Origin: a virus | UHGV virus genome: UHGV-0134350 | Length of the DNA: 31,759 nucleotides | Direction: 5' to 3' (one strand) | Shown: positions 19,644 through 31,709 of the stretch, piece by piece | Layout of the letters: every line of letters starts with the position of its first letter | How positions within the stretch are numbered: the stretch's first letter is position 1 | Notes under the pieces: generated by a model | What the model was told of the DNA's origin: nothing | Database searches by the model: none | Seen by the model: the letters and a program-made list of their open reading frames with translations, nothing else | Made by a program: the position numbers and the translations under genes

Positions 19644-20690
19644 ATGGGTAAACAAAAATCCCGTAAAGCCAACGCACAAAAGGCCAGCAAACCACAACAA
19701 CTGACCGCCAGCGCACCGCCAAAAACGACAGCGTTCACCTTCGGCGAGCCGGTGCCGGTACTCGATAAGCGCGACATTCTGGATTACGTCGAATGCATCA
19801 GTAACGGCAAATGGTACGAGCCGCCGGTCAGCTTCTCAGGGCTGGCAAAGAGCCTGCGCTCTGCCGTGCATCACAGCTCGCCAATTTATGTTAAGCGTAA
19901 CGTGCTCGCGAGCACCTACATTCCGCACCCGTTGTTATCCCGTCAGGATTTCAGCCGCTTTGCGCTCGATTATCTGGTGTTCGGTAACGCCTTTCTTGAG
20001 CAGCGCCACAGCGTCACCGGCCAGTTAATCAAACTGCTGGCCTCGCCAGCCAAATACACCCGACGCGGAGTCGACGATTCGATTTTCTGGTTTGTGGAAA
20101 ACTTCACCCAGCCGCACGAGTTCGCGCCTGATACCGTGTTTCACCTGCTGGAGCCCGACATTAATCAGGAGATTTACGGTCTGCCGGAATATCTCAGCGC
20201 GCTTAATTCCGCTTGGCTGAATGAATCCGCGACGCTGTTCCGCCGCAAGTATTATCAGAACGGCGCGCACGCAGGCTACATCATGTATGTGACTGACCCG
20301 GCGCAAAGTGCGACCGACGTCGAATCGCTGCGCGAGGCGATGCGTAACTCGAAGGGACTCGGCAACTTTAAGAACCTGTTTTTCTACGCCCCCGGCGGAA
20401 AACCGGACGGCATCAAAATCGTGCCACTGAGCGAGGTCGCCACAAAGGATGACTTTTTCAACATTAAGAAAGCCAGCGCCGCCGACCTGATGGACGCGCA
20501 CCGCGTACCGTTCCAGCTCATGGGCGGCAAGCCCGAGAATATCGGTTCACTCGGTGACGTTGAGAAGGTGGCAAAGGTATTTGTGCGCAATGAGCTGTCG
20601 CCGCTACAGGACAGGTTCAGGGAGGTAAACGACTGGCTCGGCATGGAGGTCATCAGGTTCAAAGAGTACACCCTCGATAATCCGGAATAA
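19644..20690 (+). CDS. Q: portal protein gpQ
   Basis: 348-aa ORF, P2 Q-like, immediately downstream of P and reading toward cos. Confidence 0.9.
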   Translation: MGKQKSRKANAQKASKPQQLTASAPPKTTAFTFGEPVPVLDKRDILDYVECISNGKWYEPPVSFSGLAKSLRSAVHHSSPIYVKRNVLASTYIPHPLLSRQDFSRFALDYLVFGNAFLEQRHSVTGQLIKLLASPAKYTRRGVDDSIFWFVENFTQPHEFAPDTVFHLLEPDINQEIYGLPEYLSALNSAWLNESATLFRRKYYQNGAHAGYIMYVTDPAQSATDVESLREAMRNSKGLGNFKNLFFYAPGGKPDGIKIVPLSEVATKDDFFNIKKASAADLMDAHRVPFQLMGGKPENIGSLGDVEKVAKVFVRNELSPLQDRFREVNDWLGMEVIRFKEYTLDNPE

Positions 20691-20720: not shown

Positions 20721-21446
20721 TCAATCGTGAGTGGATATTTGCGAAACAAACTCTTTAACTCCATCTCGTTCAAGTATTTTACTGTCATGGATATACTTTA
20801 CGATATCCCACTCGTAGTATGTACAAGCCATTGCAACTAAAGATATTATTTTTATGTCAGTTAAGTTAACTAATGTTTCATAATAATCTTCCCGTTCAAC
20901 CCCGCAATTATCTATCAACTTCACAATCAAATAAAAGCGACGCACCACTGAAAAAATGCAATCATTAGCATCCACTTCACTTAACCACTTTGTTATTACC
21001 TCTTTTTTTACCTTGGCTTTAACTAAAATTACAATATTATCTTCAAGATAAGTTACGGCTGCACCACTTGTAAATTCTTCGACCACCCCGTCAGTTTGTC
21101 CATCAATATCACCAACTTGAACACAAAACCTTTCAAAGTTAGAATCCTGACATTCAACCAAATGGAAAAATCTCACTTCAAATTTTTTATACTCTTCTAA
21201 AGATTCTTGCCTTTTTACTTCATCGATCAGGCTGGAATTAGCCTCCCTTTGAAGTTTTATTGAATTTATAAGGAGGTAAATTGTAATAAATGAAAGTATA
21301 GGGTTGACGACACCACCCAAATAATCACCAAACTGCGCCCAAACATCAGTCTTGCTGGATAAATGTCCGTTTACTCCGAAGTTGAAGTAATACAAGGCGC
21401 ACACAGCTACAATCACGCCAGCCGAAGACAGCAACACCTTTCTCAT
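20721..21446 (-). CDS. cargo protein with two N-terminal transmembrane helices (candidate membrane effector)
   Basis: 241-aa ORF in markedly AT-rich DNA; hydrophobic helices VLLSSAGVIVAVCALYYF and LGGVVNPILSFITIYLLI; ATG overlaps the stop of the upstream gene (ATGA). Confidence 0.75.
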   Translation of the reverse strand: MRKVLLSSAGVIVAVCALYYFNFGVNGHLSSKTDVWAQFGDYLGGVVNPILSFITIYLLINSIKLQREANSSLIDEVKRQESLEEYKKFEVRFFHLVECQDSNFERFCVQVGDIDGQTDGVVEEFTSGAAVTYLEDNIVILVKAKVKKEVITKWLSEVDANDCIFSVVRRFYLIVKLIDNCGVEREDYYETLVNLTDIKIISLVAMACTYYEWDIVKYIHDSKILERDGVKEFVSQISTHD

Positions 21447-22261
21447 ACAGTTTCAACCATACGGATTAGATATTTCACCACATCACCACTTTTTACTACA
21501 ACTTTGCTAACAGTAAGTTTTAGATATGTGTAGTTATCTTGCCTGCCATTATTATTGTGTAAATTTAATGAGACCAATCTTTTTTGAGCGGCGGGTATAG
21601 CCTTTAAAGGCATGTAAAAACCAAAGGCTACTGTATCATCTTCACCTTCGATAACTAACCTACCATTTCCAGTTCTCGCATTAAATCGAGTAATAACTGC
21701 GTTAATATTAACTTGACCGGGCTTTATTTTTGATTGTGTCAAGTTTGTAGCAGTCATTGTGTCTAACTTTGCTATTCTTTGTTTTCCAGCAGGTTTTTTA
21801 TAGTTAAGTTCAACATCAAAGTTTTTTTGAAGATTTATCCTATGCATCCTTACCAAAGGTTGTCTGATACGATCAATAAGTTCATCTTCAATTTCCTCAA
21901 GCTCCTCAATAATTCCTGCAGCTTTTGGAGATAGCTCCTTAGTTTCCAGATATAGAGATTCAGAAATAAAATACCCCATGACTTCCGAGAACACAGAACG
22001 GGTCATTTTTTTTAATTCGGCAGCTAATTCCGGCTCATTAACAATCAAGTCGAAGTTTTGACCATAAGAACTTTTAAAGCTTTGTTTGAGAACCGCTCGC
22101 GCAGGGTTAACATGAGTGCGGCGCTTAATAATTTTTTTTCTGAGTATTGCCTCTGCTAGTATGCATGTCACCTCAGCCGTTCCAGAGAGGGTATCAAGGC
22201 CATACTCCATATCAACTTCTTGATCACCACTTTTGATGACAACGTCATAGCTAACTTTCAT
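21443..22261 (-). CDS. cargo protein of unknown function (candidate sensor partner)
   Basis: 272 aa from the ATG (MKVSYDVV...) preceded by AAGGA; the track start is a GTG two codons upstream; AT-rich; no motif I recognise. Confidence 0.75.
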   Translation of the reverse strand: MKVSYDVVIKSGDQEVDMEYGLDTLSGTAEVTCILAEAILRKKIIKRRTHVNPARAVLKQSFKSSYGQNFDLIVNEPELAAELKKMTRSVFSEVMGYFISESLYLETKELSPKAAGIIEELEEIEDELIDRIRQPLVRMHRINLQKNFDVELNYKKPAGKQRIAKLDTMTATNLTQSKIKPGQVNINAVITRFNARTGNGRLVIEGEDDTVAFGFYMPLKAIPAAQKRLVSLNLHNNNGRQDNYTYLKLTVSKVVVKSGDVVKYLIRMVETV

Positions 22262-22369
22262 CGGCACATCCTTGATTTAGTAACCTTTGGTTATTATTTT
22301 TCATCTTCTACTCATTGACACCGATTTTTTACACCAAAAATATCAAATTGCAAGTGTGTGCTGCGCGCA

Positions 22370-22388: not shown

Positions 22389-22545
22389 TGCCCGCTTTAC
22401 GGGGCGGTTTTAATGCAGTTGCATGAACACTCGGGATCCGCGCCAGCTCTGGCGGCGCACGGTCAGAACGGGCAACCCCTGCGAATGCAAAAGCATGCAC
22501 CTGTTGCATGCACGGCTAAAAACGGGGAAATCGCGGAAAAATGGC

Positions 22546-27184: not shown

Positions 27185-27694
27185 TCAAATCAGACCAAAC
27201 GATGCGCCAATACCGCTCATGGTATCGACCACGCTCGACATAGCTGGATTAGTCTGCAGACGTGCATGCAGAGCCAGAGCCGACAATGACAACATGCGAA
27301 TGCCGGAGTTAACGCTTTCAATCATGTTGTGCTTACGGGCAATGGTCAGACGTTCATCAGATACCGCGCCGCTCGCCAGTTCGCCGAGTTCACGCATTGC
27401 GCGCATGACATAAGACTGCAATTTGTCTTTAGCCAACTCATTAACCGGCACGCATGGTAGGCAGTGAATCTGCGCTAAAAAACCATCAATGAGGGTTGAG
27501 TCTTCGGTCAGGTCAGTCAGCAGCCACAATTCAGACGGCGTGAACTGGTGAGGCTGTTCCGGGTTGAGCTTGTTACGTAACGTTTGAACGTTCATACCTG
27601 CACGCTTGGCCAGCTTCGCCATATTGTGACGCTGTGCGAAAATGCGGCATGCTTCGTCATAGTGGGGATGTTTGGAAACCTGAAAATCAAACAT
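27185..27694 (-). CDS. cII: CII-like lysogeny establishment regulator (186 CII / CP76 family); P2 gpB is the alternative assignment
   Basis: 169 aa from ATG (MFDFQVSK...) with GAGGG RBS; HTH-like segment MAKLAKRAGMNVQTLRNKL; lies directly after the apl-like gene as in 186. Confidence 0.65.
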   Translation of the reverse strand: MFDFQVSKHPHYDEACRIFAQRHNMAKLAKRAGMNVQTLRNKLNPEQPHQFTPSELWLLTDLTEDSTLIDGFLAQIHCLPCVPVNELAKDKLQSYVMRAMRELGELASGAVSDERLTIARKHNMIESVNSGIRMLSLSALALHARLQTNPAMSSVVDTMSGIGASFGLI

Positions 27695-27726
27695 GGTTAA
27701 ATTCCCTCTAACTTGCATAATCAAAT

Positions 27727-28098
27727 TCAGTTAAGAGCGGTGCGCTGGTCGATGTAGCGACAATCAATCGCTTGTTGAGTCAGCTTATCGCGCCATGCTT
27801 TTACGTTTACGAGGGTTCGGCTTCGTTTAGCAGCTTCCTCTTTGTTGGAAAAGTCTTTGGTCGGAGCTTTGAGAAGGACTCCCTCATCGAGCCATTGCCA
27901 GACCAGACGCTCGCTAACACCGCGAGTAGCGGCGAAGTCTTTCACAGTCATCGTGTCTGACATAGCGGAGCGAATCATTGTCTGTAGAGCTGGCAGCATG
28001 GCGGTAACGATGGCATCAAACTGTGTTGGATCTAGCAGCACAGTTTGATTTTGTGAGTTTTGCGAGTCGTGCGTCGAGATTGATTTTGCATCTGACAT
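27727..28098 (-). CDS. Apl/Cox-like excisionase-regulator (HTH)
   Basis: First gene of the early operon, divergent from the repressor; HTH MTVKDFAATRGVSERLVWQWL; AGGAGA 9 nt upstream of the ATG at 28098, internal starts not excluded. Confidence 0.7.
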   Translation of the reverse strand: MSDAKSISTHDSQNSQNQTVLLDPTQFDAIVTAMLPALQTMIRSAMSDTMTVKDFAATRGVSERLVWQWLDEGVLLKAPTKDFSNKEEAAKRSRTLVNVKAWRDKLTQQAIDCRYIDQRTALN

Positions 28099-28219: not shown

Positions 28220-29080
28220 ATGAGTTCTGAGCTTGATGTTCAGTGGCGTGTTAGTGCAACGAACGGCGTATTGGAACGCTTAATGTCAGCCTATGGGGTC
28301 AAGATGCAAAAGGATTTGGCTGACCTGCTAGGTATCGCTAAACACAGCGTTAGCGGCTGGGTTCAGCGTGATGCAATACCTGGCAATGTCATAGTTAGGT
28401 GTTGTCTTGACACGGGAGCTGATATCAATTGGCTTGTAAATGGAGAACTTGCAAATGCAAATCACGAGCGAGCCAGTTGCAAGTTAAAAGGCAAAGAGCT
28501 TTATGACGAGATTATGACGAATGGTGGTAAAACCGTTTTGCGTAGGATTCTTGATGCGTATGGCTTTACCATGCAAAAGGAGCTCGGTGATTTGCTCGGC
28601 ATTTCCTCTGGCACAATTAGCACATGGGTAAGGCGAGATTTTTTCCCTGGTGATGTTGTTGTTACATGCGCTCTTGATACCGATACGTCACTGGAATGGT
28701 TAGCAACAGGCAAGGGGCAAATGCGAGCTAACAGGGAAGATGTCACATCTGGTTTTTCTATTAAAAAATCTCGTCTTGAATCTGGTGAGCTTAAGGATGC
28801 AGGAACGTGGCATCCTGACCCCTCAATGATTCCTTCTAACTCAGGGGAATTGATTTTTGTTGACGGTGTAGCTGCCTCTTGGCTTGTCGACTGTTCTGCT
28901 TCGAATATAAGTAATGGTCGCTGGTTAATTGATATCGACGGCGCTCTTGATGTTTTTGATGTAATTCGCTTGCCCGGTGGAAAAGTCAGGTTGTCAAATA
29001 AGTCTGCTGAGTTTGAATGCAACATTACAGACATTACTCCTGCCGGGGCTGTAGTTTTCACATTGGAAAAACACGTGTAA
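28220..29080 (+). CDS. cI: CI-type immunity repressor (186 CI-like) with tandem duplicated N-terminal DNA-binding domain
   Basis: 286-aa ORF; two internally similar segments (aa about 18-77 and 96-163) of the phage CI repressor HTH type, then a CI C-terminal-like domain. Confidence 0.8.
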   Translation: MSSELDVQWRVSATNGVLERLMSAYGVKMQKDLADLLGIAKHSVSGWVQRDAIPGNVIVRCCLDTGADINWLVNGELANANHERASCKLKGKELYDEIMTNGGKTVLRRILDAYGFTMQKELGDLLGISSGTISTWVRRDFFPGDVVVTCALDTDTSLEWLATGKGQMRANREDVTSGFSIKKSRLESGELKDAGTWHPDPSMIPSNSGELIFVDGVAASWLVDCSASNISNGRWLIDIDGALDVFDVIRLPGGKVRLSNKSAEFECNITDITPAGAVVFTLEKHV

Positions 29081-29088
29081 GGGACATT

Positions 29089-29418
29089 ATGAAATGTAAA
29101 CTCTTTTTAGCTCTGCTTCTTACCCTTTCTTTTGGAGCCTCAGCCGCTGAAAAAACACAGGATTTAGATGGCGCTAAGTTTGGTGAGGATTGGCCGTTAA
29201 CTTTTGAAAAAGCTACGGTGTCTTGTGTCAACGGTAAATATGCCTTTGTGTACGACAAAGCAACAGATGACCAAATGGTTTTGCGATTGATGGAGTAAAG
29301 TCTGGAAAGCTTGAGGGGAGCAATATTGATACTGTTTGGAAAGATAGCCCGGAGTATGCAGGCGTAAAAATTCCTTTGGATCCTGTAATGGATGCTGCAA
29401 CAGCACTTTGGGAATAAT
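29089..29418 (+). pseudogene. small secreted protein gene interrupted by a 1-nt frameshift (moron between cI and int)
   Basis: ATG with GGGA RBS; signal peptide MKCKLFLALLLTLSFGASA; the frame stops at 29298 but another frame continues NGFAIDGVKSGKLEGSNIDTVWKDSPEYAGVKIPLDPVMDAATALWE to 29418. Confidence 0.5.
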
Positions 29419-29439
29419 TAGAGTTGCCTCGGTGACATT

Positions 29440-30480
29440 ATGACTGTAAGTAAGCAAAAAAATGGCAAATGGTTATGCGAGCTCTATCCAAATGGTCGAG
29501 AAGGGCGGCGTATACGTCGGCAATTCAATACCAAAGGTGAGGCCGAGGCATTCGAAGCATTTACGAAAAGTGAGAGTGAGGATAAGCCGTGGCTCGGCAA
29601 GAAAGAAGACCGCCGACGCTTAAGTGAGATTATCCAGCTTTGGCATAATTTACACGGACAGGCACTGGTCGCCAGTAAGTCGCGGTTAGCTAAACTTCAA
29701 ATCGTGTGTAATGGACTTGGTGACCCTATTGCATCCCGCCTTACTGCTAAAGATTGGGCTCATTACCGTGACCGCCGACTTCGGGGGGAGATAGATAATG
29801 GCTATCATAAAGACCCGGCAAAATGGATTGCTAAACCGATAACTGTCAATCGTGAGCAACAATATCTTGAGGCTGTATTTAATGAGCTCAAAAGGCTAGG
29901 GGAGTGGAGCTTACCAAATCCACTTGATGGAGTCCGTGTTTTCAAGGAAGCCGAGAAAGAAATGTCTTGGCTCACTTTGTCTCAAATTCCGAAATTGTTT
30001 CAGGCATGCGAGCAATACGGAAAAGAAGACCTCACCATGATTGTTAAGATTTGTCTTGCAACAGGTGCTAGATGGGGTGAGGCTGAGAGGTTGACACGTC
30101 CCCAGCTCTCGCCACATAAACTGACCTTCACCAAAACGAAAGGGAAAAAGAATCGAACCGTTCCGATCCCAAAATGGTTGTATGACGAATTATCTGAAAG
30201 GCAGGGAAAGATGTTTAAGCCTTGCTATCAGGAGTTTAAAAAGATGCTCAAACTAACGGATATCGAACTGACGGAAGGGCAAAAGACACACGTTCTGCGT
30301 CATACCTTCGGCGCTCATTTTATGATGAATGGCGGGAATATTCTTGTGCTGCAACGTATACTCGGTCATGCGAATATTCGTGAAACTATGAAGTATGCAC
30401 ATTTCTCCCCGGATCATCTTGAGGAGGCTGTAACATTTAATCCTTTAACATTATGTAATGGTTTTAAATGGAAAGATTAA
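29440..30480 (+). CDS. int: tyrosine integrase
   Basis: 346-aa ORF with catalytic-domain motifs HVLRHTF, LQRILGH and YAHF; downstream of cI as in P2/186. Confidence 0.9.
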   Translation: MTVSKQKNGKWLCELYPNGREGRRIRRQFNTKGEAEAFEAFTKSESEDKPWLGKKEDRRRLSEIIQLWHNLHGQALVASKSRLAKLQIVCNGLGDPIASRLTAKDWAHYRDRRLRGEIDNGYHKDPAKWIAKPITVNREQQYLEAVFNELKRLGEWSLPNPLDGVRVFKEAEKEMSWLTLSQIPKLFQACEQYGKEDLTMIVKICLATGARWGEAERLTRPQLSPHKLTFTKTKGKKNRTVPIPKWLYDELSERQGKMFKPCYQEFKKMLKLTDIELTEGQKTHVLRHTFGAHFMMNGGNILVLQRILGHANIRETMKYAHFSPDHLEEAVTFNPLTLCNGFKWKD

Positions 30481-30549
30481 TTATGCGTATATTGTTAGTT
30501 TATTTTAACGCTGTTGGATTTAAATTTAATAACGGCTGCGTCTATTGTA

Positions 30550-30596
30550 AACCATAAAGACCACCTATGGCCGTCTTTATGGTTTGTGTTTTTTTG
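30550..30596 (+). terminator. rho-independent terminator after int
   Basis: Stem AACCATAAAGAC / GTCTTTATGGTT, then TGTG and a 7-T run; abuts the stop of the convergent 281-aa gene. Confidence 0.5.
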
Positions 30597-31442
30597 TTAT
30601 GATGGTAATTCTATTTCATCATGATCATCAACTTTTTCAAAGTCACCGGCTTTAATTGGGACAGGTTTAAGTTCAATTTCACCGAAACCCATTGGGAAAA
30701 GACTATGAGTAGTGTCTTGTTTGCAAAAATAAGATACCAAATCAAATCCACAGGAAACTTTTTTTATAAAGTCATCTGATAGTAAAATGCATAAAAAAGA
30801 TGAGTCTTCTTTTGTTTCTGTGTTTTTCTTTGTTGTCTTGGGGTGAATTATGTCATTTCTAAGTGACTCAAGGCTTTTAAAATCTTGCCATAGTTTTGAA
30901 CCTTTAGGTGAATCACAATTTAAAATAGACGGTAGGATTTTATCTATTTTTTCACTTGTTGGTATATATCGCTCAATTAGCTCTTTGCTATAGGATTCTT
31001 TGATTCCCTTGGCATTGTTTTTTTCATAAACATAATCATGTGGTATGCATATATTTGCAAAAGACTCAATTGCAGTATACATAGAAATAATGGCCGTCTG
31101 AATTGATTCAAAGTAATTATAGAGTCTCGGCAGGTCTTTGTCGGAAATTTTAAAGTTTTTATGTTTGGTTTTGTGTATTTTTCCAAAAAGACTTTTATAT
31201 ATAGAATTGGATTTTGAGAGCTCTTTTTTTGCTGAGGATAAGAATATAGAAACGTTATTTGGGGTGAAAAAACTAACTGTCGCACCAGATAATGTGGCTT
31301 TATCTGACATTTGCAATGTCAAATTTAAATTTTCTTCTTCTATTCTTGCTATGATTGGTCTCTGCATCCTGATATCGATAATCTGGATTGTATCCTTTTT
31401 TGACACGTTCTTCTCCGTGGATGTTTTGTGGTTAAAAAACAA
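30597..31442 (-). CDS. hypothetical protein in AT-rich flank, HEPN-like R-x4-H motif
   Basis: 281-codon open frame in very AT-rich DNA, which is unlikely by chance; motif LESLRNDIIHP; the track start is TTG and the true start is uncertain. Confidence 0.55.
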   Translation of the reverse strand: MFFNHKTSTEKNVSKKDTIQIIDIRMQRPIIARIEEENLNLTLQMSDKATLSGATVSFFTPNNVSIFLSSAKKELSKSNSIYKSLFGKIHKTKHKNFKISDKDLPRLYNYFESIQTAIISMYTAIESFANICIPHDYVYEKNNAKGIKESYSKELIERYIPTSEKIDKILPSILNCDSPKGSKLWQDFKSLESLRNDIIHPKTTKKNTETKEDSSFLCILLSDDFIKKVSCGFDLVSYFCKQDTTHSLFPMGFGEIELKPVPIKAGDFEKVDDHDEIELPS

Positions 31443-31556
31443 TGCTAATTTTAGGATGTTGGGTTTTTAAAAACTGACAACTACTTGGTAATACCTGATT
31501 CGTGCAAAAATAATTTTGAAGCTAATAATTACATTATATCAGGTAAAAATCATATA

Positions 31557-31709
31557 ATGCGTATCAATATTACAACATATACGGAAATTTTCCAACTACC
31601 TCATGTGTTAGCGTTTCACTCGGGTATACTAAAGTCTGTGTGGTATAAAGCTTTAAGTGGCGGCAAAGTGGCGGCGGAGGTTGCAGAATATTGCAATTCA
31701 CTGCATTAA
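31557..31709 (+). CDS. small hypothetical protein (uncertain)
   Basis: Open frame from ATG (MRINITTYTEIF...) in AT-rich flank; weak RBS. Confidence 0.2.
   Translation: MRINITTYTEIFQLPHVLAFHSGILKSVWYKALSGGKVAAEVAEYCNSLH

Follow-up and report, generated by a model that had tools for sequence, protein, structure and literature searches.

Lysogeny genes of a P2/186-type prophage occupy the right end of the window (the whole 31,759-nt stretch of DNA analysed here). Between the immunity repressor gene cI and the integrase gene int lies a small gene with a signal peptide and a broken reading frame. The features discussed below are, in order along the window:

20721-21446 and 21443-22267, minus strand: two overlapping cargo ORFs of 241 and 274 aa, just after the putative portal gene
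27185-27724, minus strand: cII-like gene of the lysogeny region
27727-28098, minus strand: gene of 123 aa in the apl/cox position of the lysogeny region
28220-29080, plus strand: immunity repressor gene cI, encoding 286 aa and lying upstream in the lysogenic operon (assigned by Pfam; E. coli records annotate an identical protein, WP_001394632.1)
29079-29084, plus strand: AAGGGA, a Shine-Dalgarno-like element that overlaps the TAA stop of cI (29078-29080) and ends 4 nt short of the ATG
29089-29145, plus strand: signal peptide of 19 codons, MKCKLFLALLLTLSFGASA, read from the sequence, with predicted cleavage between ASA and AEK
29089-29298, plus strand: ORF of 69 codons, read as a truncated DUF2511 pseudogene, with 61 native and 8 out-of-frame residues (QMVLRLME) and a TAA stop at 29296-29298
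29272-29273, plus strand: junction of a 10-bp deletion, GATACCCATT lost, located by orthologue alignment and by the allele of E. coli S3; codons R62-Y63-P64-L65 are gone and the frame is shifted by -1
29274-29417, plus strand: out-of-frame remainder of the gene (N66-E112 and the TAA at 29415-29417), identical in sequence to the intact sibling allele
29409-29411, plus strand: TGG (Trp) at the conserved C-terminal Cys position of the family, where all other homologues have TGC or TGT
29440-30480, plus strand: tyrosine integrase gene int, 346 aa, the downstream gene of the operon
30597-31406/31442, minus strand: ORF of 269 aa (WP_001394629.1) in a cassette inside the 3' end of int

A sequence-only reading of this region had proposed a gene for a small secreted, periplasmic-type protein between cI and int, and that much is borne out. 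The ORF that starts at the ATG at 29089 reads MKCKLFLALLLTLSFGASA and then AEKTQ...DDQMVLRLME. Judged by eye, its N terminus has lysines at positions 2 and 4 in the n-region, an 11-residue hydrophobic core and A-S-A at -3/-1, features that fit a Sec signal peptide with predicted cleavage after residue 19. The good ribosome-binding site claimed for the gene is also there: the string TAAGGGA, which joins the cI stop to the Shine-Dalgarno element, is invariant in 6/6 aligned sequences. Translated from 29271, where it opens, the -1 frame gives PNGFAIDGVK...ATALWE as far as its TAA stop. That stop ends at 29417 and not at 29418 as first given, and the 41 further residues first counted become 47 native residues after the break, 39 of them beyond the premature stop. 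The ATG of int lies 22 nt past the original DUF2511 stop and 141 nt past the premature one. The spacer between the original stop and int (29418-29439, plus strand) contains GCCTCGGT, which is invariant across phages with differing flanks, the most distant of them only 75% identical over the 501-bp region. It may be a ribosome-binding or translational-control region for int.

The break in the frame had been placed at gatgacc/aaatgg, which is exactly where it lies, and had been attributed to a homopolymer tract, which is not what happened there. Instead, the gene has suffered a clean 10-bp deletion that removes invariant R-Y-P-L codons. In an alignment of six sequences (the window and five phage orthologues), only the window has a 10-bp gap after GATGACC. 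A base-by-base comparison with the S3 gene runs through 184 identical bases, the lost GATACCCATT and a further 145 identical bases, and in this comparison the placement of the deletion is unique, with zero microhomology. The four residues removed (R62-Y63-P64-L65, or RYPL) are invariant in 15 cluster representatives. Because no substitutions separate the deleted from the intact sibling alleles, the deletion is recent.

Three other accounts of the lesion were considered and rejected. A one-base slip in the AAA run is ruled out by the five phage orthologues together with the exact sibling allele. Deletion mediated by microhomology or by repeats is rejected because neither was found at the site: there are no tandem repeats in 28900-29600, and a scan of the intact allele gave no direct repeats flanking the deleted 10 bp. 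Finally, one contig that carries the same deletion behind a differing 5' end (L010, protein variant P0016) raised the question of independent recurrence. Beyond roughly position 100 of the gene, however, its sequence matches the window exactly, TGG included, and on that pattern it is either a recombinant or, at its 1.5x coverage, a chimeric contig, rather than a second origin of the deletion.

An intact frame of about 110 aa had been anticipated, and the orthologues are indeed 339 nt long and encode 112 aa. If the short ORF were the natural form of the gene, orthologues should all end at its stop codon; all of them continue in a single frame, and the reading of a broken gene survives. In the window gene, the deletion at 29272/29273 gives rise to the premature stop at 29296-29298.

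Which protein family has been interrupted becomes clear once the frame is repaired. The repaired protein matches the Pfam family DUF2511 (PF10709) with an E-value of 7.5e-12 and 45.9 bits over profile positions 5-86 of 87, whereas the 69-aa ORF alone scores 15.9 bits, under the gathering cut-off of 21 bits. Because the repaired protein completes the DUF2511 match, the downstream frame is the true continuation of the gene and not a chance ORF. The search of homology and structure that the sequence-only reading had recommended for the full-length form thus gives DUF2511 by Pfam and, by modelling of a homologue, the YebY/MlbQ fold. At the sequence level, the protein of phage PSP3 matches YebY (PDB: 7N0J) with an E-value of 3e-7 over residues 33-111, with both cysteines aligned. 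The structure model was made for a full-length homologue (P0001) that is 98% identical to the intact sibling, and not for the truncated product. Its pLDDT of 66.6 is moderate, with a poor C-terminal half, and we used it for fold assignment and rough strand placement. By its fold matches the model belongs to the YebY/MlbQ fold, a four-stranded antiparallel sheet with helices around it. Its only significant Foldseek matches in the PDB are YebY 7N0J (E 2e-5, TM 0.63/0.73) and then MlbQ (6QFP and 2MVO; E 0.04-0.08, TM 0.53-0.55). Among the PHROGs, the DUF2511 protein matches only phrog_2950, annotated as 'unknown function', and PADLOC gave no match to known defence systems. A literature search for functional studies of any phage DUF2511 protein found none.

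The intact gene is a regular resident of this locus. It lies between cI and int in seven distinct phages (10 records) of the PSP3-like Eganvirus group, namely PSP3, SEN1, vB_EcoM-613R3, Midge, RCIP0057, SI22 and SW9, and at the same position in many E. coli prophages. A search of genome contigs with exact 8-residue patterns, which were too strict, returned one locus, in Enterobacter sp. MGH 24, where the gene is intact. Among intact orthologues dN/dS is 0.04-0.27 (about 0.1), with dS up to about 1.7, and because of these ratios we consider the protein to be under purifying selection and presumably functional in phages.

The gene had also been called an inserted moron, a description that holds in part. 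It is present in PSP3-like phages and absent from 186 between conserved neighbours, and the accompanying statement that the repressor and integrase genes are adjacent in 186 is correct: in the 186 record cI and int abut at 22433. It is, however, a conserved resident of the cI-int operon with no sign of an independent transcription unit or of deviant base composition. A consensus scan of the plus strand found no promoter-like or terminator-like site between cI and int, and the GC content of the DUF2511 gene (0.419) is near that of cI (0.452) and int (0.454). These sequence features suggest a gene that is built into the lysogenic operon rather than a classic self-contained moron.

The deleted allele is widespread. 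With a 701-bp query (28900-29600), seven complete E. coli genomes from several projects (Ecol_545, 10035210-2, ECE313, CH423, CH425, CH458 and GMM060) are 100% identical to the window, deletion included. Twelve more, for example S3 (WP_001394631.1), are identical over the same 701 bp except that they have kept the 10 bp. The RefSeq (PGAP) annotation of the identical sequence in Ecol_545 is 'DUF2511 domain-containing protein', marked as pseudo and 'frameshifted'. Moreover, the exact 69-aa product occurs on 363 contigs in 470 blocks of a large assembly collection and in NCBI records such as SQY16178.1. Because the product is recorded on 363 contigs, the deleted allele is real and circulating.

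The deletion is not the only lesion in this lineage. All complete E. coli genomes with this prophage lineage (19/19) encode ...ATALWE, with TGG as the penultimate codon, whereas a Cys occupies the C-terminal position in PSP3, in YebY and in 14/14 other cluster representatives; Trp is confined to this one allele cluster. In the window gene Cys46 is present, and its prospective partner is not only TGG but also out of frame. The intact Trp allele is very common, with at least 1000 contigs, which counts against a loss of function before the deletion. Because Trp is present in the intact siblings, the replacement of Cys by Trp predates the deletion, and by analogy with YebY it should destabilise the intact protein. 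Furthermore, the same MKCK...W background contains a second frameshift, in which one A is lost from GAAAAAG (P0017, three sequencing runs), and a third, in which one T is lost from GGTTTTG (P0034, three contigs). These two further independent frameshifts suggest relaxed constraint after loss of the disulfide, although the survey of frameshift variants used the Trp allele as its query and the excess of disruptions there could be ascertainment bias. The function of the gene had probably been lost, or the gene had probably become dispensable, before the deletion occurred.

Taking these observations together, we conclude with high confidence that 29089-29417 is the orf28/gp28 gene of PSP3, a member of the DUF2511/YebY family, turned into a pseudogene by a 10-bp deletion in the Trp-allele lineage. 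The suspicion that the gene is pseudogenised was well founded: it has a frameshift and a premature stop, and RefSeq flags the identical sequence as pseudo. In its intact form the gene would share the transcript of cI and int, driven by the lysogenic promoter, and its product would be made in the lysogen, a picture that draws on the pL operon of 186 and on our scan of the intergenic sequence. The 112-aa protein would be exported by its Sec signal peptide to the periplasm and stabilised there by a Cys46-Cys111 disulfide, as in YebY. This lineage first swapped the C-terminal disulfide Cys for Trp, and the 10-bp deletion then shifted the frame. Translation of the deleted allele would stop after the 61 native and 8 aberrant residues.

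What would remain is a fragment. The truncated ORF retains its ribosome-binding site and signal peptide, and from its sequence a fragment may be made. Placed on the moderate-confidence homologue model, it keeps the modelled strands 21-27, 41-47 and 51-56 and loses the RYPL strand (61-64) and everything C-terminal to it. The mature exported fragment of about 50 residues, with half of the fold and the disulfide partner missing, would probably be degraded and non-functional. A polar or uncoupling effect of the early stop on the synthesis of Int is conceivable from the spacing of the genes.

We weighed three other explanations of the broken frame against the pseudogene. Under one, the break is a sequencing or assembly error and the real gene is intact. 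A single window by itself could not rule this out, and the closest relatives differ from it at 29272/29273 only. Loss of 10 bp in non-repetitive sequence is, however, atypical of reads, the identical allele recurs in the seven complete genomes from different projects and on the 363 contigs, and NCBI records hold the 69-aa product. We therefore regard an error as extremely improbable, and the suggestion of one in the sequence-only reading is in effect excluded by the independent assembly of those seven genomes. No more credence can be given to a regulated two-frame gene, whether by phase variation at a slippery tract or by programmed -1 ribosomal frameshifting. The two frames do share 29271-29298, where a -1 shift could put them back together. 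All orthologues are nonetheless single-frame, the site has no tandem or direct repeat, its AAA run is only 3 nt long, and the overlap CCAAATGGTTTTGCGATTGATGGAGTAA is without an X XXY YYZ heptamer. Even a perfect shift would yield a protein without the invariant RYPL residues. The earlier proposal of phase variation falls on the same grounds, since the locus has no repeat tract and cannot regain the lost 10 bp.

The remaining explanation accepts the deletion and gives it a use. Either the truncated product (mature length about 50 aa) is functional, or the deletion was selected, with loss of the protein being beneficial or the early stop lowering Int and stabilising the prophage. Several observations point this way: the deleted allele accounts for 7/19 complete genomes of the prophage lineage besides its 363 contigs, the ribosome-binding site and signal peptide are intact, and three independent disruptions have arisen in one allele background. 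Moreover, the normal 22-nt distance from the DUF2511 stop to the int ATG makes translational coupling possible. Set against these, clonal expansion of the host can explain the spread (CH423, CH425 and CH458 are near-identical genomes), and the fragment is without the RYPL strand, all C-terminal helices and the disulfide partner. Drift accounts for the data as well as selection does. We consider function or selection very unlikely, and retain the reading of a pseudogene made by deletion in the Trp-allele lineage.

Much of this was already known: the gene family and its position between cI and the integrase gene (PMC8689200), and the frameshift (RefSeq PGAP). In that sense it is an ordinary annotated pseudogene. 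Our analysis corrects the nature of the lesion, which is a 10-bp loss of invariant codons and not a homopolymer slip. It also shows that this allele, of a gene that lies within a lysogeny operon and is otherwise strongly conserved (dN/dS about 0.1), has Trp in place of an essential disulfide Cys and was disrupted on three or more separate occasions. The allele thus serves as a natural experiment on a small scale, and suggests that these hosts can dispense with the phage YebY-like protein. A bolder hypothesis, which we think unlikely to be correct, would make the phage YebY homologue a lysogenic-conversion factor expressed from the cI-int operon. It might tune copper import into the host at the periplasm through YebZ/YobA, in the manner of YebY, or it might capture an antimicrobial peptide, or a component of an infecting phage, in the way that MlbQ binds NAI-107. 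The change from Cys to Trp and then the three independent frameshifts would be adaptive, rather than neutral decay, in a human-associated E. coli prophage lineage.

Other features of the prophage bear description in their own right. An AT-rich cassette of about 1.2 kb (30448-31657) lies inside the 3' end of int, with a GC content of 0.315, whereas the window as a whole has 0.515. The final ~13 residues of Int are replaced by it, so that Int ends ...NPLTLCNGFKWKD (346 aa) as compared with ...NPLSLAIGDKVAAEVA in PSP3 (349 aa); from about 31658 a displaced relic of the int 3' end, with attP-like sequence, picks up again. Neither PSP3 nor the prophage of E. coli strain 222 has the cassette. Of 5426 complete E. 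coli genomes, exactly 19 contain it, and these are the 19 with the DUF2511 Trp allele. Its 269-aa product has no Pfam match and no tblastn match in 50,697 phage records. It matches phrog_17113 (unknown function), has a weak HEPN-type match in PADLOC (RTasHEPN, E 1.3e-4) and contains an R-x4-H motif (RNDIIH). From these sequence features, the cassette protein may be defence or abortive-infection cargo.

The two overlapping cargo ORFs follow a gene at 19644-20690 that, by gene order only, we take to be the portal gene. In P2, the equivalent position after the portal gene holds the anti-phage genes old and tin. Neither ORF has a Pfam match; they match phrog_8999 and phrog_13337 (unknown function), and the sole PADLOC match of the pair is a weak ZorB/MotB-like one to the first, 241-aa ORF (E 0.002). 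Closer to cI, a Pfam search gave no match at E<0.01 for the 123-aa apl/cox-position gene, in agreement with the remark that the Cox/Apl analogue of PSP3 is a singleton without recognisable domains (PMC3448106). The record of phage Midge annotates the counterpart of this gene as 'transcriptional repressor Cox' from HHpred.

The repressor itself differs from that of 186. The CI of 186 has 192 aa (579-nt CDS), compared with 286 aa in the window. Window CI has two tandem Phage_CI_repr helix-turn-helix domains (the second at 106-169) followed by Phage_CI_C at 180-277, and PSP3 CI is alike. A 2011 survey explained the greater size of PSP3 CI by a 'longer C-terminal domain' (PMC3448106). The domain matches in the sequence point instead to a duplicated N-terminal DNA-binding domain.

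How does the locus compare with known systems? Phage 186 has the same order and orientation of cI and int and a related CII, whereas its gene in the apl position is unrelated. According to the 186 record, pL drives a lysogenic operon of cI, int and orf69, with a terminator behind it. No gene lies between cI and int in 186, and the accessory ORF of its operon, orf69, comes after int and is not a DUF2511 gene.

MlbQ (PDB: 2MVO and 6QFP), the lipoprotein for self-resistance to the lantibiotic NAI-107 in Microbispora, shares the DUF2511 fold and is the second-best fold match. Its disulfide is in the same place as that of YebY (PMC8689200). It differs from the phage protein in that it is a lipoprotein, has a long linker, comes from a Gram-positive host and is linked to ABC transporters, and the sequence identity is only 21-24%.

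YebY is closer. It belongs to the same Pfam family and has the same fold as the phage protein, with about 29% identity over about 90 residues and both cysteines aligned. YebY is periplasmic and monomeric, and members of the DUF2511 family have predicted signal peptides (Hadley et al., PMC8689200). It has a Cys48-Cys113 disulfide, and replacement of either Cys by Ala or Ser abolished expression; Cys113 is the counterpart of the position that is Trp in the window. DUF2511 genes flanked in Enterobacteriaceae by one gene for an XerD-like recombinase and another for a phage CI repressor had already been noted (PMC8689200). YebY dampens copper import mediated by YebZ (PMC11923076). The genomic settings are different: YebY is chromosomal, in the yobA-yebZ-yebY copper-uptake operon, whereas the phage copy is without yobA and yebZ neighbours.

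The nearest relatives are orf28/gp28 of PSP3 (NP_958085.1) and its orthologues, which have the same gene order (cI, this gene, int), strand and start context as the window. Over a 501-bp query that spans the gene (29000-29500), PSP3-type phages are 75-93% identical to the window at the nucleotide level, and the gp28 protein of PSP3 shares 72-100% identity with its counterparts in the other phages. Annotations of these genes read gp28/orf28, DUF2511 domain-containing or 'putative periplasmic protein'. All are intact and end ...ALC(E/N), whereas the window gene has lost 10 bp, is frameshifted, and has Trp for the terminal Cys.
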